Shown here one piece after another: positions 17,301 through 61,156 of a DNA stretch of 64,000 bases. Each line of letters opens with the position of its first letter. Within the stretch, counting starts at the first letter, position 1. The translations under genes were made by a program, and so were the position numbers. Origin of the DNA: Blasia pusilla (Eukaryota); NCBI GenBank assembly GCA_050084515.1, contig CM114271.1, positions 27,776,001 to 27,840,000 on the forward strand, given 5' to 3'. A model generated the notes under the pieces. That model saw only the letters and a list, made by a program, of their open reading frames with translations, was not told the origin of the DNA and searched no databases.

Positions 17301-17379
17301 TCTATACGGATTTGTGGACCCCTCAACGTACTCAAATCATGCAAACTAATTCCTATGACTCCTAAGGAATTGATGTAAT

Positions 17380-24225: not shown

Positions 24226-24866
24226 TCTACCATCATTCTACGTTTATTCAATTTCTATATGAAAGAAACACCCACCGAGATGCTTTGAAGCTAGATATGG
24301 TCAAGAACCCCATGCGGGAAACAAAAAAGTTTTCAAAAGGAGGTACTCTATATGAATAAAAGAAAATGGAAAAGACACATCTGAAATACACGCTTGGGAG
24401 ACTCGTAGAATCACCAAGGCGTGGTATCGTACCCTCGAGCCAGGTTACCACAGTAGATGCGTGGTCCCACTGTAGTCGCTGGAGAGTGCATGTCAGCTGA
24501 AGTAGCAAATAAATAATAGTTGACCAGTTAGCTTAGATACCGGTCATCTAAGTTTTACGAGTTGCAGGGTTCTCATGTCTACACGTTGCCACGCAATCCC
24601 TCTATCCACTCTGATTCCACAGCACTCACGAGCTGCTCGCGACCAGACCGTGGCTATGCAAGAATTCGAGCACGAATTCGAAAGCCACTGCGCTGTGCCT
24701 GCAGCCATCATCGCAAGAATTAGATTCTAATTCTGGAGGAGGAATTAGTGATCCATCCCTTGGGTGGGGAGCTTCGGAGTGCAGGCGAGAAGAGGCGGGG
24801 AGGAGAGAGAAGGTCGAGGTGACAGACAGATCGACGAGATACCTCGAGGTGCGAGGAGGAGGATAC

Positions 24867-25556
24867 ATGGCAGCCAGAACGTGTTCCATCGCGCTTGTCT
24901 ACGCTCCGTCATTGGCACTGAGCTGCAGAACGCGCAAGGCTGCGTCGTCATCGCGGTCGCCGCATTATCCGATTCCGGTGTCGGCGCGGGTGTCATCTTC
25001 TCTGCTTCGCAAATGTCCGCAATCCATCGGGAAATCAGGAATTTCGCTCGTTCAGCCTTTCTCCGATGACGTTCCTGGTCTAGAGGGGAGGCGATTGTCT
25101 AGAGTCGTGAGGACCTTCGCCCGGAGCCCTGTGACGGAAAGTGAGGAGGTGTTCTTTGATGGAGGAACTCATTATGGCGACTTGTTGGCCAACTTGGTGT
25201 TCGGTCTCACGCTGGTATGGCTCCCATTGACACTAGCTGCCGTTTTCCGATCCCTCTTTCTCCGATATCGCTTCACAAACTTGCGCGTCACGATCATGTC
25301 GGGGCTGCTAGGAGAGGATCGGAAGGACTTCTCGTACGAGGTCATCAAGGATGTCAGATTTGTGCCGCGTTTCATTGGAGAATGGGGTGACTTGGTGATT
25401 GAATTGAAAGACGGCACCCTCATTGATCTGCGCTGCGTGCCCAAGTTCAGAGAAATTGCCAAGTATGTCAAAGAGAGAGCTGGCCAGAAGCTCAGTGACC
25501 CCACCGTTCTCACTTCCACTGGAGGAGGCGCTCCCAAGAAGGGCTTTTCTTCTTAG
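24867..25556 (+). CDS. Intronless, probably plastid-targeted membrane protein with a bacterial PH-like (bPH_2-type) domain, cyanobacterial-type family
   Basis: 229-aa ORF from ATG 24867; S/R-rich transit-peptide-like N-terminus; hydrophobic GDLLANLVFGLTLVWLPLTLAAV; YRFTNLRVTIMSGLLGEDRKDFSY...GEWGDLVIELKDG...LRCVPKFREIAKY. Confidence 0.8.
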   Translation: MAARTCSIALVYAPSLALSCRTRKAASSSRSPHYPIPVSARVSSSLLRKCPQSIGKSGISLVQPFSDDVPGLEGRRLSRVVRTFARSPVTESEEVFFDGGTHYGDLLANLVFGLTLVWLPLTLAAVFRSLFLRYRFTNLRVTIMSGLLGEDRKDFSYEVIKDVRFVPRFIGEWGDLVIELKDGTLIDLRCVPKFREIAKYVKERAGQKLSDPTVLTSTGGGAPKKGFSS

Positions 25557-40805: not shown

Positions 40806-42759
40806 TTCATATTCACTTCACTTTCTCTTGTGAACTCATGTATGGTTTTGTTTCGTTTCTGGAATGTCTAGCAGTAGTTGCTCTCATTCATTAGAACAAA
40901 AGAACGTTTCCCACGTGTTTCTCGATCCGAAAGTAAGATAACCAGTCCGAGGACACCTGGTCCTTTCTAATGTCATATACGTAAGAAGGCTCTCACCCAA
41001 TGTTTCTCAACTATCAGATACATCTCGCTGTTCCCCGGGATCCGAAGGCGTTAACCCTTCATACATCCTGCATATGGTCGTTAGCTAAATTATTTCCGGG
41101 TTTATGGATGTAGGCCTAGCCATTGCTTAAGCGAAATCCACGGGTGCAATCCATCCTGTGTTCCAATGGATTTCCCGCAAAGTGGAATCATAGGAGTTGC
41201 TTTCGTCTTAGGTCTTTTCGTTATGGGTGGTTTGTTCATCGCGTGTGGTGTATGCGTAAGTAGTCTTGAGCAATCAAACGTCCTCATAACTCATGTCTTG
41301 GGACCATCCTTGGCTTCTGCCAAGTCTACATACCAGGCTATCTCTCTGCTTCCGATCCCTATCTCGTTGTGATTCCCTGCGTCGAACTGGTTTCGGTGGC
41401 TTGACGATCGGTGGTCCTGCAGGGCTACCCTCTGGTGCCTTCGGAACTTCAGCCATCGCTCCACCCTTTTGAAGCTCACCTCTCAAAATCTTAGCGAGGC
41501 GATGTTTCCTTCCGTTCAGAGCGCCACAGTTAATTGCCCTACACCACCTTATTCCACTAGCAATAGTCAAGATCCTAGATCGCTCGCACTCAACCTTCCA
41601 ATACTTCGCTGGGCGAGCAATATCAACAGACTGGACCACTATTGAAAGAGCCGCCCCGTGTTTCACTCGCAACCACACGCAAACGCTCCTCGTGAACGTG
41701 CAAGTAAAGCCATGGAATCCAACTGAATTGCAAGGACTAGACAGAAGCTTAACCAGGTGACAGTTGTGGTGGCCCATCCTCTGCGGGTAGACATTGAAAG
41801 AACCACCCCACCTGTAGGCGTCCCGGGGTATGCCGGATACACCCTGTAAGCGGGGTATCTGAAGAAGAATCCGTTTCTGTCCAACCGGGTAATGCCCGGA
41901 CTATGTCGTGATCTCTGATCCTATTATGTTAGAAATCGTAGTGTGTTATGAAATTGTGAATTACTACAGCACCAAATATATTGAGTTTTTTTAATTACAT
42001 TGTCACATTGAGTGTGCTCTCACACCTCCAGCCTCGTAATGAACTCTAAGTATTTTTAGAAATAGGTGCCTTATTGAGACGGGGTGAGAAAAGGGCCAAA
42101 CATTAGTTATACGTGATAGTATGGGATTGCAAAATTCCTTCTCCAACGATTGGCATTGTCCTCCGACGACTCCTATCCAGTAGACATTTGTAATTTTAAG
42201 GAATTAAGTTAAGAAACAAGGTTAAGGTTATGTTAAGACACAAGATAACTAAGCTAAAGTAATAATTTTATTTTGTGCATAGCATGGGCATTGTTTTTGG
42301 GATTAAGTGAGAAGTTACTCCAAGAGGAAAATGGCAAGATTTGTCTCTAGTGAAGAGCTTGAATCCTTCCATATGGTAGCAATCCATACTCCAACAGTCG
42401 TTTTCAATCCTTTACAATCCCATGATCAAATTGACTAAGCTAATCTACCTACAATCAAAGGTTAGGAGTTTGCATCCAAAAGTCACATTCCTAATGATTA
42501 TGAGTCTTGTTAATGGTGTCACTACATTCGATGGTGAATAACTCTCTCCCAAACCGCTTATGATTTGACTCGCTCGACTCTACTGGCATTACTTCCAACT
42601 TTGGCTTGTAACCCACAATCTCGAGCATGATGCACAACTTCTAATACCATGAGCCAAGTAGAGCAAAGAGCATCTTGTGTCCATCCCTTAGGGATCGATC
42701 CCATGCACAATTTCTTAGAGTCGCAACCCAGGGCAAGAAACCTCTTTCGATCTCACCCC

Positions 42760-43063
42760 CAGCCACTACATCACCTTTCTTGGTAGGCATGGGGCTCAAC
42801 AATGCAACATTTGTGACCTATCACAACCTCATGTGACATTGCATGTAAACCAGTTCAGGTCCATCGCCTAACTCAAGACATGACGCCATGATGCCTATGA
42901 TACTGACAATACTGTCGTCACTCCTGTGGGAAATCTCATCCCTCCCTCTCGCTCATCCGCCTTGGGCTCCATCAAGCATTGTGCCTGGTCATCCCAAACC
43001 AAGCCAAGTCTAGCCTCCTTATGTGCATAGGAAGCAAGAAAACTCACAAATGTGGGAAAGGCT
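42760..43063 (-). mobile_element. Older DNMT-gypsy relic, left part (host of the younger insertion)
   Basis: Matches ~47330-47640 (methyltransferase motifs IX-X); continues at 53198. Confidence 0.8.
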
Positions 43064-43706
43064 TATCGTGCGCATACACATTGCTACACAACATACATCG
43101 TTGTCAGCGAACACACACTCAAACACGCACGATCCCATGCTAACTCATGGCATCCAAATAACGAGACAAGAAGTACTAAAATATCTCCAATTAAAGTAAG
43201 ATCCAATCTCTCTCTACACCATCTCACACCATAGCTCTCAAAGGTGTGCACTCTCTCTCATGTCAAACCAAACCCACTCTCCTAATAAGAGGCTCGGGTT
43301 ACACTCACAAGGCAAGGGACCATAGCTCCGCTGCCTCATGCCAAGAGGTTCAACAAAGAGAGAATGAGCTCTCAAGCTCTCTCTCCTTGAGGTATACCCC
43401 TCCCCTCTCCCAAGCTCTCTCCATGGTAACTTATTCTCCCAAGTCACCTCCTTGGCTCTTGACCTGATGTAGGAGGTCAAGGGCCAATTACCAAAAATCG
43501 AAAGTTGATCATCTACTCAAAATGGTATTTACCTAAAATAGTAAGTTACTCAATATGGCTCCAAATGAGCCGAAACGAAGGGGAAAACCTGCTCTCTCAG
43601 ATTTCCCGATGCCTTAGCAGGTTATCCTCGACCTACTGAGCCTGTCCTCCACTACTCACGAAGGCGATCTACTAGATCTCACCAATCTATCCTAAAATAC
43701 GTGACA
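43064..43706 (-). repeat. Complete 3' terminal repeat (A 128 bp + B 515 bp) of the DNMT-gypsy element
   Basis: Homologous end to end with the solo repeat 55985-56616 (opposite orientation); t(a/g)tcgtg...cgtgaca termini. Confidence 0.9.
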
Positions 43707-43708
43707 GC

Positions 43709-43836
43709 TGTCGTGCGCATACACATCGCTACACAACATACATCGTTGTCACCGAACACACACACAAACACGCACGATCCCATGCTAACTCATGGCATCC
43801 AAACAACGAGAGAAGAAGTACTAAAATATCTCCAAT
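43709..43836 (-). repeat. Extra copy of repeat A, separated from the full repeat by 'gc'
   Basis: tgtcgtgcgcatacaca...aaaatatctccaat repeats 43064-43191. Confidence 0.9.
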
Positions 43837-44008
43837 CGTCCCCTAGCTTGTGGTTAGGTCCCTCTAACTCCATATAGCCATCTATCCCTACCTACCATGA
43901 CATACATCTCTAGGATGTTAAGAGCAGAAAGGCTGGATGCTTATGTGGCCCATCGTTAGTTGCCTTCCTATTATCCATGTCACAGAAAAATTCGGAATCG
44001 AAACCTAC

Positions 44009-45260
44009 CTAGTATCTCCTCTTTGTACATCTGGGACACATCCATCGTCCCCGAGGAACCCTAGTGAGAGGTGGCATCAGACATGCCATATGCCAACCAC
44101 TCGAACATCCATCACAAACTAGCATCGTGGCCGCACCACGAGCAGAACCACACAACATACAATGCAAGCCTGCAGGAACTACTATTGAGCTCGGATCTAC
44201 TGTATCATCAATGTTAGGAAGGTGACATGGCGCACAATTATGCACATGGTCCTTCCATACCATACCATCGCGTCCCTCCAGCAAGAGAACACCGGATGGC
44301 AAAACGTCACGTACTCTCAGGATAGTGCGTCTTACAGTCACATCCAACGTCGTCGGTGCCGTCTGCTGCAAGTAGACATAATCTCCTTGATGAAACCTCT
44401 TGATAGTTGGTCAATAACCACCGCCCCGAATAGTCGCATACCTCAACGTATCCCGATGCTGCGCAATCGCCAAGTTCTCGAACGCCATGGGCATCACTCT
44501 TCGAAACAACACAGCCCTCTGAGAACATGCTCGCATCCATACATCTGGGTCATCAAGGTCCAGCACCTCACTAGCATCTCGACGAATGGCCGTAGGTAAA
44601 TCTGGATCTCGGCCATAAAGTAGCAAGTACGGTGAAAAAGACGCTAATGATGCCTGCCTGTTGCATCTGTATCCCATCGCCAACCATGGTTACTGGAGGT
44701 CCCAATCTCCTAGATGACCTCTCTGCAAGCCATACTTGCGTAAACCCCTCTTCACCATCTGCACAACTCTCTCCGTTAATCCGTCCGCCCTAGGATGATC
44801 TCGCGAAGTTGTGCGGTGATCGATCAGCACCTGATCACACAAGGCCTGGAACTCACCGCGAAACTCGGTAGCCTGGTCTGTCAACACCTCAGCCGATACG
44901 CCATAATGACTCAACACTCTATCAAGGAAGGCATAAGCTACTCCCTCACTCGCTTTGTCAGGCAATGCAACCAACTCGATCCACTTCGAGAAGTGCTCGA
45001 CCATCACCAACACATAACGACTATGACGCTCCGTCAAAGGCAAAGATCCTGCAAAATCCAAATTCCCTCTATACCCTAAGCCCATGATCGGTAATGGGTG
45101 TAATTGTGGAGTCGGAGCATTGAACGATGCTCCAACCTAATCACACACCATGCACCTGGCAACAAACTGTTGAACGTCAGTCTGCATGCCTCGCCACCAA
45201 TACTAAATCTGGAGCAAACTTTACGTCCACTTCACCCCAAAGTGACCCAACTCCTCGTGG
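44009..45260 (-). pseudogene. Integrase (DDE core) with C-terminal PHD finger
   Basis: DFAGSLPLTERHSRYVLVMVEHFSKW...VLTDQATEF...HPRADGLTERVVQ; PHD CMLC-x10-CDGC-x4-H-x2-CLMPPLTRVPRGRWMCPRC at ~44024-44163. Confidence 0.9.
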
Positions 45261-45361
45261 GTTGGCTGTACTAGTTGTGCTCTCTGCGAAGGATGCAGCA
45301 CTACGCGTACTCTACCATCCTCCCAAACCCTCAAAACATGTGTCCCCTCCCAACGGAACAG

Positions 45362-47010
45362 TCAGGCCCGCTGTAGGATCCGATCCCGCTCTCTAGCACC
45401 CACGGTGCTTGCAACGCTGCCTATACGACGGTACTCCAAAACTACTCCATCATCATGAATATCTCGGCCACGTGTCGTCTCCTCACTGGCCTCGGGATCC
45501 AAGGACTCTCCACTAGACCTTGCCATCGATGTCTCCACACTCTGGCTCTCCAATGCCAACATGTCTAAATAGGCTGACGCGTGCCATCCTGGCACTGACT
45601 CCTCATCACTCTCTCCATGCCATCGAGCTCCAGTCGCATCTCGCTGACTCACGCATGGGTTACGACTCAACCCATCTGCATCCTGGTTGAGCGTCTTAGG
45701 TCTATGTACCACCTGAAAATCATACTTTTGCACCAACAGAGCCCATCTTGCAAGCTTCCATGTAAGCTTGTCAGACTCCATCAACCACTTCAGTGGTTGA
45801 TGATCAGTGATGATAGTAAAGGGGTTTCCGAATAAGTAACACCTGAAATGCGCAACAACCCACACTCCAGCCAAGCACTCACTCTCATACGAGTTGTACT
45901 TCACCTCTGCAGCGTTGTTCGAGGGGCTAGCGTAAGCCACCAGGAACTCTCTACCCTCATCATCATGATGGGTGAGCACCGCTCCAAGCCCCAGCATGCT
46001 CCAATCTGTGTGCACGTGGAAAAGACGCCTCCTGATCGGTCTCCTCAAGATGGACGCCGACGTCAACCTGTCCTTGAGCAATTGAATGCTCGCTCCTGCT
46101 CATCCCCCCAGTGCCACTCATTATCCACCTTGGTCAGCAAGGTCGGCGGCTTCACAATCGAACTGAATCCCTTGACGTACCGCTGATGGAAGTTTGCCAA
46201 TCCCATGAATGCGCGAACACGGCTCACATCTGTAGGGCGTGGAATGCGTGAGATAGCCTCTACCTTCGTCTGCTGAACACCAAGGCCCCTTGGGTATATC
46301 GTATGACCGAAGTACTCAATCTGGTTGTAGAAGAACTTGCACTTGCCTGGATGTAGCTTCAGCCCATGTAATTGCAATTGTCAAAACACCTCCTCTAGAT
46401 ATCGCTCATGCTCCTCAACCGTGGCGCTAAAGACTACAATGTCATCAATATAACACCTAGCAAAATCCAGACCAGCCAAGATCCTATCCATGACCCTCTC
46501 AACTCAGCCGGGGCGTTCTTTAAACCAAATGGTAAGAACCGCCACTAGTACAAAAAATCCTTCCCGTGAGGATCGATGCCCCAAAATGTCATCTGCTACC
46601 TGTCCTCCAATCTGATAAGCAGCTGATGGTATCCGGCTCATAAATCCAATGAATTGAAAACCTTTGTATGACCAATCGCATCAAAGATCTCCTCAAGGGT
46701 GGGCATGGCATACCTATCGGACTTCGTGTGCCGATTGATAGGTCGGTAATCCCCACACATCCGCCTATCCGTCCAGTTGTCATGCACGTCCTTCTTGGCG
46801 GGCATGACAGTGGCAGATGCATACTCCCCATGCGACATCTCCACTAGTCCTGCTCCAACCAAGTCTTGGCTCCTACTCTGAATCAGAGCCCTCTCCATAT
46901 CATTGTACCTGTAGGGTCGTCGGAAGATCGGCGTATCACTCGAAAACTCAATGCGGATCCCCGATCCCTTCAACGTACCCAAATCCTCCATGCTAAACCC
47001 AAAGCATCTC
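45362..47010 (-). pseudogene. Reverse transcriptase and RNase H of the DNMT-gypsy element
   Basis: PIFRRPYRY, RRMCGDYRPIN...SLDL, PFGLKNAP and YIDDIV (46430-46540), HTDWSMLGLGAVL, ITDHQPLKWL, NQDADGLSR. Confidence 0.92.
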
Positions 47011-47419
47011 CTATAACTCCTGAGGAACTGATATATTCGGTGCCGCTCTCCTCCTATCAACTTAGGCTCCCAAGTCTCCATCGTGACTACGATAGCACTC
47101 TCCGGCGCGGATATCGGTGGTTGCAATGGTGCAAGCCCGTCTCGAACAACAACACTCAATTTCTCTCCTGGATCCAACTGCAAACTCTGATCTCCTCCAC
47201 ATGCAGTGCCCGAAACCACGCTCGATGTTGTGGCTATCATCTCCTGGCATACCTGCAAAACATCCCAAGAAGTCCAAGGGTGTCTCTCTCGATCTCCCCT
47301 GGTGTGTCGATCTCCTCGGCTCTTGCCCCCAACCACTGCCTTCACCTTCTCGGAGGCAGAGGGCTCACCAACGCAACCGTTGTGATCTGTCACGATCTCA
47401 TCCGACGCTGCTCAGCCAC

Positions 47420-48362
47420 TCCCAAGCTGAAGATCCATGTCAAGCAGCTCAAGTCCATCGCCTGACCCAAGACATGGCGTCGTGATGCCTCTGAGACTGC
47501 CGTCACTCTTGGGGGGAATCATATCACCCGCTCTCTCTCGTTGGTGTTGGGCTCACCAACCTCTAAACCTGGTCATCCCAAACCAAGCAATTGGCCTCCT
47601 TGTATGCATAGGAAGCGGGAAAACTCACAAACGTGGGAAATATTGCCCGCTTCTTGCCTACCCTGTTGACCACAGTCAACGGTGGTCGATCATCGTGCCT
47701 CATTGTCTGTGACCGAAAATCTGGATCCACAAAGGAATCCACTAACAAATGGGAGGGGCGCTCCACTATCGCATACGCCCTCCGTAACACCGCATGGGGC
47801 ACCAAGTTGGTCCACCATACACGCGGGCGATGGACTCTAGAGCCTACACTCGCCGCAACCAAGAACACTGTTGGGCCGATCCACGCACGCACCTTATGAG
47901 CACTCATCACCACCCGTGACCTAGAGTCTCCTAAGATGGGCACATTCTCCAGAATGTTGGCTGGAGAATGAGACTGGTGCTCCTGCAACTGCCATAAGAC
48001 CCTCAACATCTCCGAAAACAACCTCGACCGAGTATCAGCCAACCCGCTTCCTCGTCCACCACTCGATTGGCCCTGACATGGCCAACCATAAATGACCAAA
48101 TCAATGGTCCCTACCCGCTCTAAGTCCTGCGCCCCCAATAATGAAATATCCCTTGGTAGGGAACTCTGGTATTCCTGTACCGCGGACGCAAACAATAAGT
48201 CGAGAAAACGTAGGCGTAACTGTGCCACATGTCGTAGTGAGATGCGCCTCGCAACATGATCACTCTCCACATACATATACTATTGTACTCGCACTCCTGC
48301 CTGCAAAACATCAACTAACCTGGTGCTAATCCCTCCAAAGAGATCTAACACTCAAATACCCT
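47420..48362 (-). pseudogene. DNMT3-like DNA (cytosine-5)-methyltransferase domain inside the retrotransposon polyprotein
   Basis: Motif I GI*VLDLFGGIST; II YVESD; IV DLVIYGWPCQG; RLFSEMLRVL; VI ILENV; VIII VHRPRVWWTNL; IX-X (after a frameshift) ERERVI*FP...SRRHVLGQAMDL. Confidence 0.9.
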
Positions 48363-48788
48363 CCTCCGGGGTACACCATACAATGGGTGTGGTATCCAAG
48401 GGTGTCATCGTAGCACTCCCTGATACCTCAGGTTCCTCAGACCCGTCATGCTTCGGTGAAAATGCCTCCATCCACGCGGTTTGCACGTGCTCATCTGCCA
48501 ATCGTCGGAGCTCCTCAGTCAAGCCCCACAACAGCACCTCTCCTCCACGAAATGATGCGGCTACCATAACACTCCTCTCCATAGAAATGTTAGGAATGGG
48601 AGTATCCTCTGCATGGACATGTCCCTCAATCAAATCACTAGTTCAAGTGATGGCACTACTAAATGCTGCTAAGGTCACCATCTCTCCTCGCCGTTGCTCG
48701 ATCACTGCACATGTGAATCGAACGGGTAATGAGCTAAGGCGCCCATCACCGACCGCCATCCACAGTGCAGAGGGGCCGACTCTTCCCA

Positions 48789-50830
48789 TTAATCCAGAGA
48801 AAACCCCATCGGGTATAACATTGCTCCACCAACCAAGACGTCGTAGGACTCTGCATCAGTCACTATCGCCTTGGCTCGCACCACGAACTCATCTGGAGGA
48901 TGTCCCGGGCGAATCCTCACCACGACCTCCTGTCCATCACCTCTTCTGCAGTCACCTCTAATGTGATGCAGGAACTCCAACTCCATGCTCACATAGCGTA
49001 GCGGCCAGCCAAAGGCCTCGGCGGGCGTACCCCCCAACGTCATAATATCGGAAGCAAAAAATAAAGGAGCGTGGTACACAATGGTGGCCGCCCCCAACAA
49101 CGTGCTCGAAACATGCCCCTCCTGAGCATCAACAATAAAAGGCTTCGCACTCGCTTCTCCCATCGCCCTTCGTGCTTGCACACCAACAACATCACCAACT
49201 CTCCAGGAACTGTGATCAGGACCCATCGATGAGGTCCTCATCGCCTCAGACAACGTGAAAGACTGAGGAAGCCTAGTCTGTTTCCTGGCTTCCCCTCGTT
49301 GTGGATCCAACTCTGTGGCTGCTCCACGCGTCACAACTACGGCGGCCTCTATCTGGGCAACCCCGTACATCCAACCAGGATCCTCCATATCTCTGGCTAC
49401 TCCATATGATGTCGATGCCACGCATCGGGCATCGGGTAATCTCAATGCCATAGCGGCAATCTGCTCCTGTAGCTGATGTATCTGAGCAACCATCCTAGCC
49501 TCACGCCCGGCATCTCCCTCGACGCGTCTAGGTGTTAGGACTATACCTCCTCCACGGGCAGCTCCACCACCCTCTCGGGAAACTCCAGCTCCTCGTCCCC
49601 CAACGGGACCACCTGGTGCACGATCTCTAGGCCCATCCCGACCGGTTACTCGCTCTAGTGCCCTCTCTGGCCCTCGATCCGGATGTAGCTCAGGATGTAA
49701 ACTGAAACATCTGGCATGTGTGTGACCAAACCTCTGACAATAGTCATATTGATAACCTCCTGGTGCAGCACCATCTCCTCCATGCTGAGGCACACGTCCA
49801 TGACCCTGACGAGTGCAATCGCGCTGATGATGGGCTCTACCACATGACCAACAAGTAGTAGTAGGCGGCTACTGCTGAGCCGCATATAAAGGCGCAGGTC
49901 TCTGTGGCACGGCCTCCCAATATCCTCCTTGAGCTCGTGGTGCCACAGTCGACCTATCTTGGAGTCCACGTTGCTGCATAGGTAGTGTAGAAAATCGTGA
50001 CTGCTCTCGCCCAGAACCCATGGTGGCTACGCTCTCCTCCGCCATGTTGCGCTCAATGTTCTCGGCGGTCCTAAAAACATCTTTGAACGTAGGGGAGGTG
50101 TTCATAAGAAGCATCCCCTCCCGCACCCGTGTCCGCAAGCTCCCATCCAGCATCGCGTACCATGACTGGATAGCATGAGCCTCTGTCACCCCCTGAGTGA
50201 CGTTGATCAACCAGCGCAAGCGAGTGTTACTCACAAAATCTCACACGGGCGCCTATGGAAGTTGTGGATGCTCCGCAACTTCTCCATCTGTATCCCGTGG
50301 TAGCTCGCTCTCAACTCAGCTAAGAACTCAACCACATGGTTGAACCTAGGACGAACCCGACTAGACGGTGCAATTGCTCTAGTGCGAGTGACCTCTCCTA
50401 AAACATCACAAGTGGAAGAGGAAGTAGCCTCTCTTGACTCCTCCTCCTCCTCCTCATCTAGGAACGGCTCCGTCCATGACACATAATGTGGGTCATAGTA
50501 GAGCCTCCACGCCTAGATCTCACGTGCATATCTCTGAGAGAACTCATGGTTATCGTCCATTGGCATCCCCTCTAAATGCTGGAACATACCGTTCCATGCT
50601 GTAAACGGGTTGAACTCTCTAGAGTTCCCGGCCCGTTGGGAGTTGCACCAACTACTAAACTCTGCTATGAAATTGTGCAACTCAATCGTGCCTACTGCAC
50701 ATGAAAACCTACGCGGTCCTCTACCCCGATCGTCCATCTCGTACGCCCAACTGGTAGGACCACTCACAATGTGTGGCGATGTGCTCACAAACTCCTCTAC
50801 ACGCTCCCCCTCGACTGAAGACGACACACA
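48789..50830 (-). pseudogene. Gag (with degenerate zinc knuckle) and C-terminal half of the aspartic protease
   Basis: YQYDYCQRFGHTHARC knuckle; VVVRIRPG...AESYDVLVGGAML protease C-terminus; catalytic D(T/S)G not found. Confidence 0.65.
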
Positions 50831-51924
50831 AAGAGATCAAGGTGGTCTCTCATGTAGAGACCCTCGAAACCTCGCACCACTCTGGGTAAACCCTCCAGAG
50901 CTACTCTTAGGTCCACTACTTCGCCTCTCAAAATCCTAAAAGGACGCCGTGATGGCCCTCATGCCCCTCTCACACGATCACTCTCAACCTCGCGAGTTAT
51001 CCCTCAATCACTCATCCCAAACATGCGGCACTCGATCTACATTCTCCCTCCCCGAGACGTATATCGTGCGGCAACAAGCGGCGTGGTGCGGAAAATCGAC
51101 CAGGCTATTATCTCATCGATAACCTACCCTCAACTCAGGACATCCCATACAGGTCTATGTCCCCGAAACCACATACATAACTAATGCTCTCAGCATCCAC
51201 ACACCCAATATCCCCAAATAAACTACCTAAATCCCAGAATCCCTCACACGTGCAGGGTAAAGGACCAAAATGGGTAACCTGAACACATGTCGATGTCGCT
51301 CCTCAGCAACTGCAAATCTCGACCCCAACTTGGTCATGGAGACAAATCCTCCAATCAGTAAGTCATACTCCTCCTGTACTGATGCTGCTTAAAACTCCTT
51401 GATGGACAGTGCGATTCCAGTGGAACGGTGCGGCGTTGGAGGCGGCACAAGACGACTTCGAACGGCACGGCCCTCGATGGTGGGATGCGGCACTCGGCAG
51501 CATACCCTCCTCAATCAACAATAAACCCACACTCTGCTCCACAATGACGGTACGGCTTCGCGATCAAGACCGCACGGTGCGGCCACGAGCGGCACTACGC
51601 GGCAATCGGCGGCGTGTTGCGGCTACGGGCGTCACGGCACGGTACTCGATCGTCATCGAGCGGCTACCAATCACAACATCGCATCATGAAATCAAAACTC
51701 AAACACCATAATTGGAAGTCATCTACCATCACTGGTTGATGAAGAAACTGCGATGACGGTGGCGGCAGTTTTGTCATCAACCAGTGATGGTGATGGTCAG
51801 AGAATCAACGGTGGTCGTGGAAGACCCTCCACTTCATAATGGCGGAAATGGCAACCAAAGGGTGGACAACGGCCGAATGCAACTCTGACCAACGATGGGA
51901 AACGGCAACGGCCGACAGTGGCCA

Positions 51925-52105
51925 GTGGACGGTTGGACCGTTGATGGTGACGGTTGATTGTTGACGGTGACGACGGATCGTTGACGGTAACGGCGACGGT
52001 TGACCGTTGACGGTGACAGTTGACCGTTGAATGTGGGTGTGATGGTTGACCGTCGATGGTGACCTTTGACCGTTGATGGGTGACGGTGACGATGACGATG
52101 ACGGT
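51925..52105. repeat. Degenerate short tandem array (gttgacc/gttgacggtgac units) in the 5' leader of the DNMT-gypsy element
   Basis: Repeated gttgaccgttgacggtgac-like motifs. Confidence 0.75.
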
Positions 52106-52683
52106 CGCCGCCGGCGTGGCGGCTAGTTTAGGGTTTGAACAATTTAATCCTAAAAATCGCCTAGCAATGGCAATTTTGCAAGATTGACCATAACGTTTAC
52201 TTGCAACTCCAAATTGAGCATCATTTGTTGCACAACATGCATAGCTTCACGATCTACAATGGCAACAAAAAATATTTGGAATTGGATATTCCAGTAAAAA
52301 CTGACAGGGATTGTCGTAAAGCCTAATGTCTCTTTCTCCTACACCAAATTTAGCAGCGCTTCCGCGCAGATTTCTCCCAACCAAAATATAAAACCTATAA
52401 AAATACAAATCAGCAAGCTATATGGTGCTCCCGAGAGCACCGGCATGGTGCAACCCACCCCCATAATCAATCCCTATCAAAAATTGGGCAGCGCTTCCGC
52501 ACGCCACTCTTCCACACGAAAAATCGGCAAATGCAAAGAACAATCAAAGCAACCCTTGCTCCGGTGAGCACTCCCATGAGCCGCTGAATGGGGAACACGG
52601 TCCCCAACCTGCAAAAACAGAGAGTAACCAGCGAGCTCCCCCATGAAGCTATCTCACTCTCTCATTCTCTCATTCTCTCTTTG

Positions 52684-53197
52684 TAAAGTAAGATCCAATC
52701 TCTCTCTACACCATCTCACACCATAGCTCTCAAAGGTGTGCACTCTCTCTCATGTCAAACCAAACCCACTCTCCTAATGAGAGGTTTGGGTTACACTCAC
52801 AAGGCAAGGGACCATGGCTCCGCCGCCTCATGCCAAGAGATTCAACAAAAAGAGAATGAGCTCTCAAGCTCTCTCTCCTTGAGGTATACCCCTCCCTTCT
52901 CCCAAGCTCTCTCCATGGTAACCTATTCTCCCAAGTCACCTCCTTGGCTCTTGACTTGATGTAGGAGGTCAAGAGCCACTTACCAAAAATAGAAAGTTGA
53001 TCATATACTCAAAATCGTATTTATCTAAAATAGTAAGTTATTCAATATGGCTCCAAATGAGCCGAAACGAAGGAGAAACCTGCTCTCTCAGGTTTCCCGG
53101 GGCCTCAACAGGTCATCCTTGACCTTTAGAGCCTGTCCTCCACTACTCACGAAGGCGCTCTACTAGATCTCACTGATCTATCCTAAAAGACGTGATA
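52684..53197 (-). repeat. 5' terminal repeat consisting of B only
   Basis: taaagtaagatccaatc...cgtgata repeats 43192-43706; A absent. Confidence 0.9.
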
Positions 53198-53630
53198 GGC
53201 TGCTCGTGGCATGCCAATCCTATTGACCACAGTCAACGGCGGTCGATCATCATGCCTCACTGCCTATGATAGACGATCAGGATCCATAATGGAATCCACT
53301 ATCAAATGGGAGATCCGCTCCACTCTCGCATAAGCCCTCCGCAACACCTCATGTGGCATCAAGTTGGTCCACCATAGATGCAAGCAATGTGCTCATAATC
53401 CTACACTCGACACATCCAAAAACATTGTTAGGCCAATCCATGTGCGCACTTGATGTGCACTCCTCATCACACGTGACCTCAAATGGCCCAAAATCAACAC
53501 ATTCTCTAGAATGTATGCTGGAGAATGCGACTGATGCTCTTGCAAGTGTCGCAAGATCCTCATCATCTCCCAAAAAAACCTCGATCAAGTATCAGCCTAC
53601 TTGCTACCTTGTCCAACACTCAACTAGCCA
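53198..53630 (-). mobile_element. Older DNMT-gypsy relic, right part (continuation of 42760-43063)
   Basis: Matches ~47645-48070 (methyltransferase TRD, motif VI ENV, downstream of motif IV). Confidence 0.8.
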
Positions 53631-56600
53631 GTCTAGATGAGAACTCTCCTTCATCCACTCTTAGCTTCACACTGTGGTCCAACAGTGTAGAGATTGGCTT
53701 ACAAGTCGTGATATCATATTTTGAAAGCATATAAAGAGCATATTGTCGTTGTAGTAACCACATGCTCTTTCCAACCTTTATAAACTCAATACCAAGGAAG
53801 TACTTGAGCTCTCCCAAGTCCTTCATATCAAATTCTGCTTTTAACTTAAGCTTGACTTTTTGTACCATTTCTTCAGTACTCCCAGTAATCACGAGTAATC
53901 AATATACAACACAATGAGAATCGTATGATTCTGTCCTCTCAAGACATATAACAAAGAGTCATACTCACAAACCCTAAATCCCAACTCTTGTGGAACGTAC
54001 GTAATCTTGTCATACCAAGCTCTAGGAGCTTGTTTGAGCCCATATAGAGCTTTCTTCAACGTACATACGTGAAATGGAAACTTGGGATGCTCGTATCTAG
54101 GTGGTTGAGTCATATATACCTCCTCGTATAGATCTCTATTCAAGAAGGCATTCTTGACGTCCATGTGATGTAATCTCCACTTCTTACTTACTACAACTGC
54201 AACCACTTTTCTCGTAGTCGCCATCTTTGCAACAGGGCTAAATATTTTCTTATAATCGATGACATATTGTTGTGCATAGCCCTTAGCCACCAATCTCGCT
54301 TTGTATCTGTTAATTGTACCATCTTGATTGCGCTTGATTTTGTAAACCCATTTGCAACCAATAGCTTCCTTACCGAAAGGTATATCAACCAGCTCTCATG
54401 TTTGTTGATGTCTTAATGCAGCAAGCTCTTCCTCCATAGCTTCAATCCATTCGACTTTACTTGCAGCTTCTTCAAAACAACTCGGCTCTTGTTCTTGAAG
54501 GGTAGTCATCATATATGCATCATGTGCCGCAAGGAAACCTTTATTTATGAATCTATGAACTGGATGTGTAACTCTACTTGATCTACAAAGTTGTTGTTCA
54601 GAGGTAGATGCCTCTGACACCTGACTCAAGCTCTGACTAGTGTCAACAGACTGAATACGCACTCTTCCCATTCATGGACTCACAGATTTAACTAATGAAT
54701 CTAGGACCTCTCCTAATCCTGCACTAGTACTTGAGGAAGTTGAAGACAATGTCTATTGGTTTACAGTCATATTCTCCCCCTCAACAGACGAGTTTAGAAG
54801 GGGAATAGGCTCAGATGGAGCATACCATGACTTTAGTTCATCAAAGACAATATCGCGACTAATAATAAGTTGCCTAGAGGATGGAATGTAGCACTTATAT
54901 CCCTTAGTTCCATCAGCATAGCCAATGAAGATACACTTTTAGAATTAGGGTCTAATTTTTGATGTCTCTCAGAAGGAACATGAGCATAACGAATACAGCC
55001 AAATACTTTCAAGAAGGAGAAATCAGGTTTCCTTCCTATGAAGACTTCGAATGGGGTTTTATCATGAACTCCTATTGTTGGAGTTTGGTTGATTAAGAAG
55101 ACTGCACATGCTACAACCTCTACCCAATATACCTTAGGCATGTTCTTCTCATTCAACATAGCTCGTGTCGCTTCAGCAATATGTCGATTCTTCCTCTCAG
55201 CCACTCCATTTTCTTGTCGAGTGTAACGGCAAGTCACTTGACGTTGGATGTGATTCTAACGTAAATAGTCATCAAACTTTGTTGAAAGATACTCTCCTCC
55301 TCCGTCACAACGCAATTTCAGAATGTGTTCTATAGTGTGCTTCTCTACTAGAACTCTGGATATTTAGAACACTGAGAATACCTCTGACTTGGCTTTAAGA
55401 AAGTATACCCATATATACCTAGAGAAGTAATGAACAAATGAAACAACGTACTTGCAACCACTAAGGCAATATTGTGATATTGTCCACACATCACTATGGA
55501 TCAACTCTAATATCCTAGATGCTCTTCTACCTTGCTTTGGAAAAGGAAATCTAGCTTGTTTTCCAAATTGGCAAACACGATAAACCTCTAACGTAGTAGG
55601 ACTCCCTAATTTAGGAAGTCCTATTACTATATTAGATGATGAAAGATTCTATAATCTTTGAAGATTCATATGTCCAATTCTTTTATGCCACACATTTAGA
55701 TCTGTGACTTGTTGGCATGTTTGACCATACATTATTGTTTGAATCTTATTTGAACATTCTGCCAGATCTAGTTCCTTTGGCTATCGTAGTGTGGTCAACC
55801 ATTATTTCAATGAAACAACCATCTGCGTTAAACTTCAGTTGATAACCCTGTTCTACTATCTGTCCTACAGAGATCAGATTTATTGCAATGGTAGGAACAT
55901 AGAGAACGTTTCCAAGAGCACAAAGACCATCTGATGCTATTGGAACTTTATCGGTATGCGTGATATGATGTTGAGTGTCATCTCTGTCACGACTGTTAGG
56001 ATAGATCGGTGGGATCTAGCAAAGCGTCTGCACGAGTAGTGGAAGACATACCCAGGAGGTCGAGGATGACCTGTTGAGGCTCCGAAAAACCTGAGAGAGC
56101 AAGTTTCCCCTTCGTTTCAACTCATTTGGAGCCATATAGAGAAACTTACTATTTCGAGTAAGTTTCGATATTGGGGATAGTTGACTTTCCACTTTCAGAA
56201 GTGGCCCTTGACCCGCTACAGCAGGTTAAGAGCCAAGGAGATGACCTGCGAGCATAGGTTACTATTGAGAGGGCTTGGGAGAGGGAAGGAAATATACCTC
56301 AAGGAGAGAGAGAGCTTGAGAGCTCATTCTCTCTTTGTTGAACCTCTTGGCATAAGTTGGCGGAGCTATGGTCCCTTGCCTTGTGAGTGTAACCCAAGCC
56401 TCTCATTAGGAGAGTGGGTTTGGTTTGACATGAGAGAGAGTGCATACCTTTGAGAGCTATAGTGTAGAGAGAGATTCGATTTTACTTTATTGGAGATATT
56501 TTGGTACTTCTCACCTCTGTGTATGGATGCCATGAGTTAGCATGGGATCGTGTGTGTTTGTGTGTGTATTCGATGACAGCGATGTATGTTGTGTAGCGAT

Positions 56601-56858
56601 GTGCATGCACACGATATCTCCTGTGAGCACAATTGCAGGATCTTTCACCGGCTCCAAACTACTAAACTATTTAACTTGTGAGGTCATGTGATTTGATGCA
56701 CCAGAGTCAATATACCAATCTGCTGTCGAGTTTTTCTTGACCATTGTTGCCATATGATGAGTCATAACCAAGAGATGCTCTGGTTGTGAATGTTGTTGTT
56801 CTTGGTACTGCTATTCGTATTGTTGCTCCACATAGTTTTGTTGCTATAAGGCTCTAGT
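53631..56858 (-). mobile_element. Ty1/copia internal fragment (protease-integrase-RT), same family as 3986-14318
   Basis: QENGVAERKNRHI (integrase); LVAKGYAQ, MDVKNAFLN, LKKALYGLKQAPRAW, FDMKDLGELKYFLGIE (RT); 55775-55984 and 56617-56853 closely match 12381-12825. Confidence 0.9.
55985..56616 (+). repeat. Solo terminal repeat (B+A, 632 bp) of the DNMT-gypsy family inserted in copia
   Basis: Reverse complement of 43064-43706; tgtcacg...cacgata termini; TSD TCTC (55981-55984 / 56617-56620); the empty site gtcatctcct is visible in the other copia copy near 12583. Confidence 0.9.
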
Positions 56859-59800
56859 TGTCGCGCCCCTACTCTCCTTGAACGCCAATCTTTAGTGTTG
56901 CGGAAGCGTACGTTCAGTAGGCCACAATCTCATCGCCGATCTGCACCCAAACATGCGCTCTCGTTAGTCGGTCTCGGCCAACCAGCGTTCCAACCCACTG
57001 AGTTCTCACTCGACGTCTCATCAAGCTCAACCTTCCTTAATTCCTAGTTTCCAAAACATGGCAAGTCCTTCAAGACTTGGAACAAACTTCCTGGTTAGTC
57101 CAGGGATCTGAAACGGCACTTTCGCGCCTAGCGATCCCAACTATTCAACGGACCTCGTGTGAGCTCCAAACCGAGACCCAAGTTATTGAGTCGCGGGGTG
57201 AAATCCAAGAGGGATGTCTAAAATCGCCTCGATAGACTTGGTGCAGGTTTTCCAACCCAACTCCCAAACTCGCGTTCCGTTCCATGCCCTTGAGCCGCCC
57301 AAAGTGGGGTTCGGGTTCCAAGCACTCTCGCAGACCTTCCTCTTTACTAGTACTTCAGGGGTTCTCCAATAACCCGCCCCCTCTTGAAACGGAGGGTCGG
57401 GCCCTTCATTGTGGCCCTCAACCCGACTCCACTTACACTCGTTTCCGGGTTGTTTCTCAACCGCTGCATATGGGTTTGCAGATATCTTTAGTGTGTTTGA
57501 ACCGGCTTTCCATAAGTCTTCTAACACACCCTTGTTCAATCAAAACGCATCTTGGCGCTAAAAGTTATGGCCACAAATACAGTCAAAAACTCTCAAACGC
57601 TAGTGGCATTCCAAATCCGGATTCTTCCTTTGGCACCCCACTTCCTAGACTCAACTCCTTTCAAGTCTTGATCCGCGTTTCGTCCAGGTTTCCCAGTTAC
57701 GACCATCACATCTGAAACGCAAAGCCTTGCTTGCGTCTCGTCTCTTGTCTCTTCTTCGAGACCACTCCAACGCGCAAACCATCTTAGCGTGAGCCCGCCA
57801 ATGTTTCGATGTTCCGCTTTGGCACTTGTTTGGTCATGAGGGTCGCGACACTCATCCCTCTTTAGAGGTTGATGCCCTGATCAACGCAAACCTTTGTTAT
57901 GTCAAGTCTCCTGGGCAGCCTACCCCTTGACATTGAATTGCGTTCTGGTGGCTAACCCGCAATTCCTCTTAGTCTATAGTTGTTGCTTTGCCCCACTTAG
58001 AATTATTAACCTCTCCTCTTTGATAAGCTTGGACTAGTTGAAGGAACTAACCTATCAAATAAGCTAACTAAGTGTGCAACCTTAGACTCTTCTAACTCAT
58101 TCCTATAAACATCACACTTGTTTACCTAGTCTACAAATCGTACTACTTTTGGGTCGCTCTCGTATTCGATTTAGGCGCGTCACTAAGTTTACTTATGTAG
58201 CCACAAGTAAGATCACCCCAAGCCCCAAGATAGATTCATCTGCCCCGCCGACGCTAGGGCGAGCCCGAGCGTAATCCAACCCAAGGTCCTGTTCTAGGTG
58301 CTTATCCACATACGATCTCTCACCTCAAATACTCCTTTTCTGTCCTCTTGACTTACATCCTAAGCCTATGATGAACAACTCATAGCCATGCACTACCACA
58401 TACAAATTGCAATCAACTCTGGAATCGAATCTCCAAAATCCATACACTCCTTTATTGCAACACTAGCATATTCTGGTTACAACGGCCTTTGGCCCAAGAT
58501 TCCAATGGTTACAAGTCATGACTCTAGCTTCTCCTCATACTAATGTATGTGCTTCGCTTGCGTTTGCTTGAAGTCTCGCAACAACTCTTGCGCATTTTCC
58601 AAATCCGCCTCCGCAATCCAAGTTGCCTCCTTCACATGGTAGCCCTTCCATTTTACCAAGTATTCATACTTGTTGGCCCGACGCCTCGAACGTAAGATGG
58701 TCTCCATCTCAAACTCCGGCTCTTCATTTATGATCACCGAGTGCGGTCTCACCACCTGTCTCCGCTCGAAACGTCCATTATCTTGAAGATATTTCTTCAA
58801 CAATGACACATGAAAGGTCGGGTGAATCTTGAACTTGTCCGGCAGCCTCAACGTATACACATCCTCAAACGGGTTTGCCACAATCACATACGGTCCAGCA
58901 TACTTGGCAGACAGCTTCGCAGACACCTCTTTCGGAAGAGTGAGGTTCTTCACACTCAACCACACTTGCTCTCCAACTTGGAATCGGTGTTGGCGCTGAC
59001 TCTTGTTAGCATGCTTAACGTACCTCATTTGAGCCTTTGCAAGACTTCGCCTTGCTTGCTCTTCCCGTTCTCGCATCTCCACCAACAAACCTTCTGCCGT
59101 CGCTTGTCGTGTTCGTGCCAATGTAGTACCCTTCGAAAGGGCTAGGTCAAGAGGCCCTTCTGGCTCTCGTCCATTTGCCAGGAGAAACGGAGATTCTCTA
59201 GTTGCAGAATGCTTGGTCGAGTTGTAGCAGTACTCCGCCATGCTCAGCCACTTGACCCAATCTCGTTGATCAAGATCGACATAATTCCTTAATCTTGATT
59301 CACGATTGAGTTTACCTTTTCAGTCTGTCCATCCGTCTGTGGGTGGAAAGTTGTACTGAAACTCAGCTTGGCCTTAAACCTTCTGAACAAGTGCTTCCAG
59401 AAAGCACTGGTAAACTTTGGATCCCGATCTGAAACAATGCTCCTCCGAAAACCGTGAGCACGCCACCAGCTATCGAGAAACAGTTGCGACGTCGTATAAG
59501 TCGTTGCGGAATCCACCGTCGGCACGAATCTCGCCAACTTGCTAAACCGATCAACAATCACAAGTATAGCATTGTATCCCTCAGATTCCGGAAGCCTCGT
59601 GATGAAATCCATACACACACTTTGCAAGGGTCCTTCTGGGATCGGCAAGGGATGCAGCAAGCCTTGTTTCTTATCAGAAGAAACTCTTTTCGCTTGGCAG
59701 GTCACACAGGTCTTCACATATTGAGCAACATCCTCTTTCATGTTGGGCCAAAAGAACCGCTTTGACAGAACAGCCAGCGTAGATTTCTCTCCTTTATGTC

Positions 59801-60801
59801 CTGCCAAGGGTCCGTCGTGACACTCCGTTAACACTTTGGTTCGCATCTTGCCTTGCCCTACATAGATCCTACTCTGCTTGAACCTTAGTAAACCGTGCCT
59901 CAAACTTATGTTGGCCACCTTCTCACCCTGCTTCAACTTCCTCAGGTATTCCTTTGCGTGAGCATCCTTCATATATCCTTCACAAATCCTTCTTTCTAGG
60001 TCTGTTTCTTTAGGGAACATTGCTCTCAAGACCTGTGTCTTTGATGGCATGTGTTCCTCCTTGCGACTCAACGCATCTAGAATCACATTATCTTTACCTG
60101 GCTTGTGAATCAACTCAACATCCATCAGCGCCAAGGTATCATGCCATCGCAGTTGTTTCGGTGTCACTCAATCCTGGGTCTCAAAATACTTGAGTGATAT
60201 ATTATCGGTGAATACTCGCGTCCTGTGGAGCCCTAGATAATGCCGCCACTTCCTCAAGCAATGTACCACCGCGAACAACTCTTTCTCGTGAGTGGGCCAT
60301 CTCCTTTCAGTATCGCTAAGCTTCTTGCTCTTGTATGCTACCGGTCTCCCTTCTTGCACCAACATTCCTGCAACCGCGAAGTCACTAGCATTGGTATGCA
60401 CTTCGAATGGTTTGTCAAACTCCGACAGCTTCAATACTGGTTCCTGCGATAGAATCTGCTTCACTCGGTTGAATGCCTCATTAACTTCGTGGGTCCAAGT
60501 CGTGTTGGAAAACTTTGTTGTCCAATCTGTGAGAGGTCTCACAGTTCCCGAAAATGTTTTCACATAAGTGTGATAGAACTGCACCGCACCTATGAACCTC
60601 CTCATCCCCTTTACAGTGGATGGGGGTTCCCACTCAACAATCGCTTTCACCTTCTCCATGTCTAGACTGACGCCATCTGCACTGACCACGTGACCCAAGA
60701 ATTTGATCTTGCTCAAACCAAATTCGCTCTTCTCTACATTCGCATACAGTTGATTTGCCCTTAGCTTAGACAAGACCGCTCTCACATGTCGAACGTGCTC
60801 C
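56859..60801 (-). mobile_element. 5'-truncated chromovirus copy 2 (3' LTR 56859-57850, PPT, RT-RNaseH-INT-chromodomain)
   Basis: Collinear with 5040-~8972; long ORFs 58540-59241, 59289-60167 and 60168-60803. Confidence 0.93.
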
Positions 60802-61156
60802 AAAACTGACCTCCACTTGCTTTCACTTTTATCTTTGGGACGTGAGGTTACAAATGATACTTACGATTGTAATCATAAGGGACTAGAGCAAGGATGTCAC
60901 AAGCCATGCACTAAACTTTTCTACTATTTGACGCACGTTCCAAGTTAAGGAGAAGATAGCAACTTGATCTACAGTTTCTTGGTTCACTTCAAACATATTT
61001 CTATCACTAGAATCACAAGATTCTAGTTTCAACTCTTCTATATTTCCCTATTTGGACTTGCTCCAAGCTATTTGAAGAATGGATCATCTATACCTTTCCC
61101 CAGTCACTACTCATAAAGGATTTTTCAAACAGCTAGTTGAGTATACATACAATATC

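Follow-up and report, generated by a model that had tools for sequence, protein, structure and literature searches.

A 64,000-nucleotide stretch of the liverwort Blasia pusilla (contig CM114271.1, positions 27,776,001 to 27,840,000; called the window below) contains on its minus strand a Ty3/gypsy retrotransposon of 10,134 bp (43064-53197), delimited by direct repeats, whose Pol region carries a DNMT3-like C5 cytosine methyltransferase (DNMT) domain between the protease and the reverse transcriptase (RT). The element very probably belongs to the streptophyte Gypsy-DNMT3 lineage that was first described as KnitGypsy-Dnmt3 in Klebsormidium nitens (de Mendoza et al. 2018), and is a dead 10.1-kb copy inserted in an older relative. 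On a larger scale, and with confidence that falls a little short of even, we regard Gypsy-DNMT3 as an old Ty3/gypsy clade of the green lineage and not as an acquisition of Klebsormidium. Such a clade would combine a DNMT3-like domain with a PHD finger of the unmodified-H3 type and with split terminal repeats (A...B-A-B) whose palindromic B|A junction resembles that of an LTR-LTR circle, would have reached land plants with close copies being transcribed, and would have seen its DNMT relocated between a chlorophyte branch (after RNase H) and a streptophyte branch (before RT).

The methyltransferase domain

The initial annotation, made from the sequence alone, had claimed a retrotransposon polyprotein with a complete DNMT3-like methyltransferase between protease and RT, read through in-frame stops and one frameshift. 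All of its motif strings were recovered in the order given. From the translation of 48500-47300, a C5 cytosine methyltransferase is encoded on the minus strand at 47393-48369 with motifs I-X unpermuted. A single frame carries GI(stop)VLDLFGGIST, YVESD, DLVIYGWPCQG, RLFSEMLRVL, ILENV and HRPRVWWTNL in that sequence, and ERERVI(stop)FP and SRRHVLGQAM are read after a frame change near 47560. The interior of the domain holds 3 stops (GI(stop)V, VQ(stop)Y and VI(stop)F), 1 frameshift and a further stop at the frameshift (DDQV(stop)), and its longest open piece is 238 aa (47563-48279). The present copy is therefore a pseudogene unable to make an enzyme, so that "complete" holds for the motif set and fails for the copy.

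With the stops written as X, the reconstructed domain, for which a PF00145 match had been proposed as a check, matches that Pfam family at E 2.3e-7 (31 bits, the cut-off being 22). The match is not due to chance, because the 238-aa stretch alone finds 14 proteins of near lengths and 22 longer ones at E 1e-22 to 1e-86; the domain was also aligned with 36 relatives.

By profile and fold comparison, DNMT3A/B/C appear as the closest family. The family profile gave DNMT3A at 6e-15, DNMT3C at 2e-14 and DNMT3B at 1e-12, followed by tobacco DRM (9e-7), HaeIII (7e-6), HhaI (4e-5) and Arabidopsis DRM2 (6e-3), with no DNMT1 match at 0.01 or below. Motifs I, IV-VIII and IX-X align linearly to DNMT3A. The domain lacks the circular permutation of plant DRM (VI-X before I-V); of the DRM chains only the C-terminal half aligns, to the N-terminal part of the element domain, which fits the permuted order of that enzyme. 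An AlphaFold model of the relative P0001, built on 42 sequences, reached pLDDT 84.6 and pTM 0.82 (an earlier model from 13 sequences, with pLDDT 53, was set aside), and the Foldseek matches in the PDB listed to rank 50 are all DNMT3A/B/C at E of about 1e-18 to 1e-14, with target TM scores of 0.40-0.81, the low values being those of long chains. The parallel with DNMT3 and the lack of a DRM-type permutation, both drawn in the initial annotation, are thus borne out by the profile, the motif order and the fold matches. W-P-C-Q-G of motif IV and N-V of motif VI occur without exception in the 16 aligned relatives, and the E of ENV belongs to the positions conserved in at least 90%. The putative placement inside DNMT3 rests on these profile and fold comparisons together with the published tree of Klebsormidium nitens copies, which according to the accessible text of de Mendoza et al. 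2018 (PMC5890265) fall in a divergent Dnmt3-related clade.

Relatives and phylogeny

The relatives found by the 238-aa stretch are 41-65% identical to it and come from Calypogeia fissa, Marchantia polymorpha, Sphagnum troendelagicum and further contigs, which confirms the presence of the DNMT domain across family members. The position of the domain between protease and RT, supported in the window by translation, Pfam and tblastn, is repeated in relatives. For example, P0320 (2327 aa) shows zf-CCHC, Asp protease, PF00145, RVT_1, RNase H and integrase in one unbroken frame; P0165 and P0319 (2188 aa) have the same domain order, and RVT_1 and RNase H are also found in two of the Marchantia models. 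The Marchantia, Calypogeia and Sphagnum gene models with the DNMT domain are already public as hypothetical proteins.

A profile of 13 relatives was compared with 1.84 billion representatives and gave 8,152 matches at E<=1e-3, 1,836 at E<=1e-10 and 492 at E<=1e-30, the best 150 all exceeding 233 bits. By phmmer with domain pieces, 202 proteins (same-cluster members included) were assigned to architectures. In 98 of them only the DNMT was detected, and in 68 it stands after RNase H, 41 of these being full RT-RNase H-DNMT-integrase-PHD proteins. DNMT followed by integrase, with or without PHD, was seen in 21, DNMT before RT or RNase H in 13, and in 2 the DNMT stretch was not found. Both placements, before RT and after RNase H, were confirmed by Pfam. 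The 41 full proteins are giant open polyproteins of up to 3456 aa (among them P0184, P0188, P0205, P0227 and P0296), of which the named ones come from the chlorophytes Scenedesmus sp. PABB004 and Cymbomonas tetramitiformis; no published description of these proteins was found.

A DNMT tree (FastTree, LG+gamma, midpoint root) was computed from 155 distinct stretches of at least 250 aa, 8 of the 163 qualifying ones being exact duplicates that were dropped. The window DNMT lies within a clade of 46 tips with support 1.0, which includes 8 of the 8 rows typed as DNMT before RT and 0 of the 83 typed as DNMT after RNase H. Its members include the K. nitens protein GAQ93235.1, three proteins from Closterium and sequences from Mesostigma viride, Marchantia, Calypogeia and Sphagnum. 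In GAQ93235.1 Pfam finds zf-CCHC first, then the protease and then the DNMT. Named rows across the tree from this clade are the 'pol' protein of Scenedesmus sp. PABB004 and a protein of Cymbomonas tetramitiformis. Between the streptophyte and chlorophyte types the median identity is 42% for RT-RNase H and 45% for the integrase (48 and 47 rows), and the RT and integrase of the DNMT family are 27-29% identical to those of two chromoviruses in the window.

Anatomy and terminal repeats of the element

Read in the orientation of the element, the order is repeat A1, Gag with a zinc knuckle, protease, DNMT, RT, RNase H, integrase, PHD finger and finally the repeats B1-A2-B2; all of the following features lie on the minus strand. 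A1, the 5' terminal repeat (514 bp, 52684-53197), was delimited by direct-repeat comparison with A2 (515 bp, 43192-43706), and outside it stands the upstream 4-bp target-site duplication AGCC (53198-53201), whose identical downstream counterpart lies at 43060-43063. A1 and A2 agree in 494 of 527 aligned bases (93.7%); since the repeats diverge by 6%, the insertion is not recent. The degenerate Gag-like region (49011-50722), with the zinc knuckle CWSCGRAHHQRDC, matches residues 9-546 of the Marchantia protein P0021 by tblastn at 36-42% identity, in two frames and with 2 stops. It is followed by an aspartic protease remnant (48723-49010; P0021 residues 685-754, 49% identity). No Pfam call was obtained for the protease in the window copy, and it is known by its similarity to the Marchantia protease parts; the relatives have Asp_protease_2 at the matching position. 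By eye, the position of the protease catalytic motif is degenerate in the window copy.

Beyond the DNMT, the RT is split over frames (46297-47087; RVT_1 at 46506-46769 and 46297-46500; tblastn with P0022 residues 691-976). RNase H follows at 45722-46090 (RT_RNaseH E 2.1e-29, RT_RNaseH_2 E 2.5e-23) and the integrase at 44792-45292, with the Integrase_H2C2 zinc domain (45137-45292) and the rve core (44792-45022) both called by Pfam. At the C-terminal end of Pol, downstream of the integrase, there is a C4HC3 PHD finger (44027-44161; PF00628 E 2e-9) with 8 of 8 zinc ligands matched by a regular expression. Repeat B1 (128 bp, 43709-43836), just after a conserved purine run CTAGGGGA, is identical to B2 in 121 of 126 bases. 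The two-base spacer GC (43707-43708) separates B1 from A2 in the palindromic junction GACA-GC-TGTC, a layout common to the relatives, and B2 (128 bp, 43064-43191; placed by repeat comparison) forms the 3' terminus. The element starts with TATCA and ends with CGATA, compared with TGTCA and CGACA in the relatives.

The A...B-A-B arrangement recurs in other copies. Among 80 metagenome loci examined, five could be tested for it, having an A1/A2 pair and sequence past A2. In three of the five (L080, L078 and L045) B1 immediately precedes A2 and B2 immediately follows it, with 106-108 of 113-117 bases identical and scores of 184-195 against a shuffled maximum of 26. No B was found after A1 in these three loci, nor was any B-like sequence found after A1 in the window element. 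All four copies, that of the window included, open with T(G/A)TCA and close with ..ACA, for which the window copy has ATA; they are flanked by exact 4-bp target duplications (CATA, AAGG, TCTC and, in the window, AGCC), and conserve the purine run ahead of B1. The junction palindrome GACA-GC-TGTC is present in the window (43707-43710), L080 (14661-14666) and L078 (about 10350); in L045 (about 10494-10499) the spacer is AT. The palindrome looks like the junction of a circle formed between two long terminal repeats (LTRs), and from the standard LTR replication scheme we obtained no derivation that gives A...B-A-B with integrase-type ends. The same layout is on record: the accessible text of de Mendoza et al. 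2018 (PMC5890265) describes A-coding-B-A-B for DIRS elements of Symbiodinium and 'the same' repeat structure for the K. nitens Gypsy element with Gypsy domains.

The PHD finger

In the PDB, the best matches of the PHD finger are CHD4, PHF12, the PHD1 of KDM5B and KDM5A, Lid, KAT6A/B, PHF21A, ATXR5, DPF3, AIRE and UHRF1. Most PHD fingers among these matches bind H3 tails with unmethylated K4. An intact PHD about 4.2 kb past the DNMT was found in 11 of 31 testable loci by a strict pattern that decayed copies fail, and the finger is present also in chlorophyte-type proteins, including the 41 full ones. No Pfam match to PWWP, ADD or the companion DUF domains of land plants was found in the element, whose sole reader is this PHD, about 4.2 kb downstream of the DNMT and after the integrase. 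PHD fingers are known in retrotransposons, including Gypsy-7a_cRei of Chlamydomonas, according to the part of PMC9940879 that was accessible, and the word 'PHD' has 0 occurrences in the accessible text of de Mendoza et al. 2018 (PMC5890265).

Nested insertion and further copies of the family

The family has inserted into itself, since the studied element splits the DNMT of an older family member. The upstream half of that older copy (53202-53629, minus strand; tblastn with P0021 residues 980-1119) is identical to the inner positions 47655-48072 in 333 of 417 bases (80%), and the downstream half (42756-43059, minus strand) to inner 47326-47640 in 230 of 289 bases (80%). Removal of the element and one AGCC restores the length and the frame of the interrupted outer DNMT copy, and the insertion is thus a nested one that duplicated 4 bp of its target. 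The inner element itself is a dead copy without function.

By tblastn there are four DNMT fragments of the Gypsy-DNMT3 kind within the window. The third, at 17234-18911 on the minus strand, runs from the protease end through the DNMT to the start of the RT region (tblastn, 32-51% identity to Marchantia proteins). In the fourth, at 21374-22222 on the plus strand, tblastn and translation find the DNMT to about motif VIII and then directly the integrase core; because the translation passes from mid-DNMT to the integrase core, the fragment appears to be a derivative from which an internal deletion removed RT and RNase H. A chlorophyte-type order was rejected for it, as a chlorophyte-type protein gives no match there. 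Pfam searches in six frames over 15.5-19.5 kb and 19-24.5 kb found 0 families for these two fragments.

Selection and expression

The dN/dS ratio (NG86) was below 1 in all four pairs of window copies compared (0.34-0.76); the initial annotation had proposed computing it. It is 0.40 for the inner against the outer copy (213 codons), 0.37 for the inner against the copy at 17-19 kb (190 codons) and 0.34 for the inner against the copy at 21 kb (146 codons). These copies are dead, and their values suggest past constraint, as decay after insertion drives the ratio towards 1. For the K. nitens copies, dN/dS below 0.2 is given in the accessible text of de Mendoza et al. 2018 (PMC5890265).

In three RNA-seq runs with the same species label, 308, 389 and 314 reads were placed on 42500-54000 at a likeness of at least 95%. 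Their low-depth coverage falls on the terminal repeats, gag, RT and integrase. Most first mates map to the plus strand, the pattern that minus-strand (sense) RNA gives with the majority of stranded library types. Close relatives of the element are thus transcribed at a low level, the RNA signal being seen outside the DNMT part. In one DNA run (X1) reads cover the element far more deeply than its flank, a ratio that is not a copy number.

The CpG ratio is 0.77 in the element and 0.75 in the window, compared with 0.66 in an IRX10-like gene of the window, and is uninformative about past methylation. Within the A repeats (52684-53197 and 43192-43706) the CpG observed/expected value is 0.35-0.38, and 24 of the 33 A1-A2 differences are transitions.

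Evidence against and rival explanations

A number of results weigh against this account of a land-plant Gypsy-DNMT3 element with a DNMT3-type domain. The PF00145 match spans just 72 positions of the profile (49-120 of 324). Comparison with Marchantia proteins shows a minimum of 6 frame changes and some 20 stops in the element between 50722 and 44027. In the two other testable loci (L056 and L059) no B repeats were found, and the intact PHD pattern is absent in 20 of the 31 testable loci. One of the four dN/dS values, that of the outer copy against the copy at 17-19 kb, is as high as 0.76 (147 codons). The RNA reads derive from other copies, because nearly all of them (303 of 308, 383 of 389 and 308 of 314) are only 95-99% alike, and over the DNMT bins (47492-48259) the RNA depth is 0 to 0.09 in the three runs. 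The tree, rooted at its midpoint and built without rows for host DNMT3, DRM or bacterial enzymes, shows kinship with the K. nitens protein and not a placement inside DNMT3. Finally, a lone sequence in phmmer against the PDB gave a weak result with HaeIII (1.4e-4) above DNMT3A (2.8e-3), and motif IV reads PCQ where the aligned DNMT3A has PCN.

The last two points are also what favours a derivation of the domain from a bacterial or viral methyltransferase of the restriction-modification type, since M.HaeIII comes first in the single-sequence search and PCQ is the motif IV of HhaI and HaeIII. With the family profile, however, DNMT3A/B/C lead by a margin given as at least 8 orders of magnitude in E-value, no bacterial or viral enzyme stands among the fold matches listed to rank 50, and HRxRxWWTN of motif VIII aligns with HRARYFWGN of DNMT3A; we consider this origin highly improbable. 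That a host DNMT3 pseudogene has come to lie amid transposon debris, with the order protease-DNMT-RT arising by chance, might be suggested by the region being a stack of nested, broken elements. It is hardly credible when repeats and a target duplication enclose the domain within a single element, when relatives hold DNMT, protease and RT in single unbroken frames, and when four such DNMT fragments share one 64-kb window.

The elements of liverworts and Klebsormidium could also have captured a DNMT independently, converging on the same host gene. The accessible text of de Mendoza et al. 2018 (PMC5890265) places the acquisition 'in the K. nitens lineage' and reports that retrotransposons took up DNMTs several times. 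Against this stand the single DNMT clade with full support, an insertion point between protease and RT and an unusual A...B-A-B repeat structure that are common to both, and the intermediate hosts Mesostigma, Closterium and moss, which leave two captures very improbable. The DNMT domain may instead have been retained for something other than C5 methylation of DNA, such as RNA methylation, binding of DNA or S-adenosylmethionine (SAM) without turnover, or a part in particle structure. From the accessible text of the same study (PMC5890265), the K. nitens domain produced no methylation in yeast, and RNA methylation was raised for a LINE-borne DNMT. The yeast result, which also counts against the methyltransferase account, is called inconclusive by its authors, human DNMT3B having failed too, so that the assay had no working DNMT3B control. 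None of the 16 relatives departs from the catalytic PC and the NV, the E of ENV is almost as constant, and the fold model of P0001 matches DNA-bound DNMT3 structures across the whole domain. A role of this kind is rather unlikely.

Possible function

For the Gypsy-DNMT3 elements we propose the following. In intact relatives the DNMT would be translated within Gag-Pol beside RT, and would methylate cytosine at C5 with SAM as the donor, by means of the PCQ cysteine and the ENV and RxR motifs. The enzyme might also be released from Pol, as the initial annotation had supposed. The likeliest substrate would be the new cDNA of the element itself or the DNA around a new insertion, while the PHD at the end of the integrase probably serves to tether integration to nucleosomes whose H3 tails are in a particular state, as chromodomains do in chromoviruses. 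Action on the cDNA (self-methylation) is possible though short of probable, and action on neighbouring host DNA is unlikely; what remains falls to another catalytic role of the DNMT or to none. Methylation of the own cDNA or of the insertion site was proposed for DIRS elements in the accessible text of de Mendoza et al. 2018 (PMC5890265).

The paradox of such elements is that retrotransposons encode an enzyme that normally silences them; the function has been open since 2018, and activity has been shown only for the dinoflagellate elements. If Gypsy-DNMT3 is indeed an old clade of the green lineage, bryophytes, including the model Marchantia, hold many transposon-borne genes for de novo methyltransferases that methylome studies have not counted. 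Should the lineage prove abundant in bryophytes, the long open Marchantia models would allow testing in a genetically tractable land plant with known methylomes, and transposon-borne copies would have to be taken into account when bryophyte 'DNMT3' genes are counted or de novo methylation is interpreted. The pairing of a DNMT3-like domain with a PHD that resembles readers of the unmodified H3 tail mirrors the ADD-DNMT3 logic of the animal enzymes.

Comparison with known systems

KnitGypsy-Dnmt3 is the closest known system. Like it, the window element carries a Dnmt3-type domain of the same DNMT clade in the Pol frame of an LTR Gypsy element, with the order zinc knuckle-protease-DNMT, A-coding-B-A-B repeats and possible signs of purifying selection. 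It differs in its land-plant host, in being dead and in bearing a PHD, which goes unmentioned in the accessible 2018 text (PMC5890265). The chlorophyte relatives (Scenedesmus sp. PABB004 'pol' and Cymbomonas tetramitiformis) share a related DNMT at more than 233 bits and a PHD after the integrase, but their DNMT stands after RNase H and not before RT, and they lie on the other side of the DNMT tree.

SymbioDIRS-Dnmt3 of Symbiodinium also has a Dnmt3-like domain in Pol and A-coding-B-A-B repeats; among retrotransposon DNMTs, de novo methylation of CG has been shown for its enzymes alone, according to the accessible text of PMC5890265. It is an element of the DIRS class with a tyrosine recombinase, whereas the window element has a DDE integrase, TG..CA-type ends and 4-bp duplications. 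With DIRS-like retrotransposons in general, which have a tyrosine recombinase and leave no target-site duplication, the window element agrees in repeat layout only, as it has Integrase_H2C2 and rve and as 4-bp duplications flank all four copies. Animal DNMT3A/B/C are the nearest solved sequences and folds, with unpermuted motifs and a short target-recognition region of similar length. The element domain is about 20% identical to them, has PCQ and not PCN, lacks PWWP and ADD, and is part of a retrotransposon polyprotein. Chromoviruses and Gypsy-7a_cRei likewise join a histone-reader module to the integration machinery. In chromoviruses this is a chromodomain at the C-terminus of the integrase, where the window element has its PHD; in Gypsy-7a_cRei the PHD is drawn before the integrase, and the accessible part of PMC9940879 makes no mention of a DNMT.

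The initial annotation knew of no characterised land-plant family. This novelty is weaker than supposed there: the lineage has already been published from Klebsormidium, and the accessible part of 10.64898/2026.05.21.726589 refers to 'streptophytes (Gypsy-DNMT3)'; no paper was found on land-plant members. No published description of Gypsy-DNMT3 in land plants was found, although figures and supplements (Fig. 4c and Supplementary Figs 13-14 of the 2018 paper, and a 2025 DNMT survey) may hold such data. What goes beyond the published text accessible to us is the breadth of the family in bryophytes and other streptophytes, the PHD finger and the chlorophyte sister form.

Other features of the window

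The region around the element is a stack of nested, broken elements. A sequence like repeat B at about 56301-56800 (plus strand; score 100 of a possible 126) is a piece of another related element. A Copia-type polyprotein, with integrase and then RT, was seen by eye in the translation at about 53.6-57 kb on the minus strand, where it adjoins the outer DNMT copy. The two chromovirus-type Gypsy elements lie on the minus strand at 6733-10435 and 58540-60860 and have SH3_Tf2-1 and chromodomain, integrase and protease.

The IRX10-like xylosyltransferase gene lies at 28009-29915 on the minus strand. It groups with Marchantia and Riccia with support 100/98 in a tree of 19 rows, in which the moss, lycophyte, fern, angiosperm and charophyte rows fall apart and which has no hornwort or leafy-liverwort row; by this gene the host is most likely a liverwort. 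A few kb from this gene, a 313-aa open frame (24615-25556, plus strand) matches the 'bacterial PH' domain PF03703 at E 6.6e-13.

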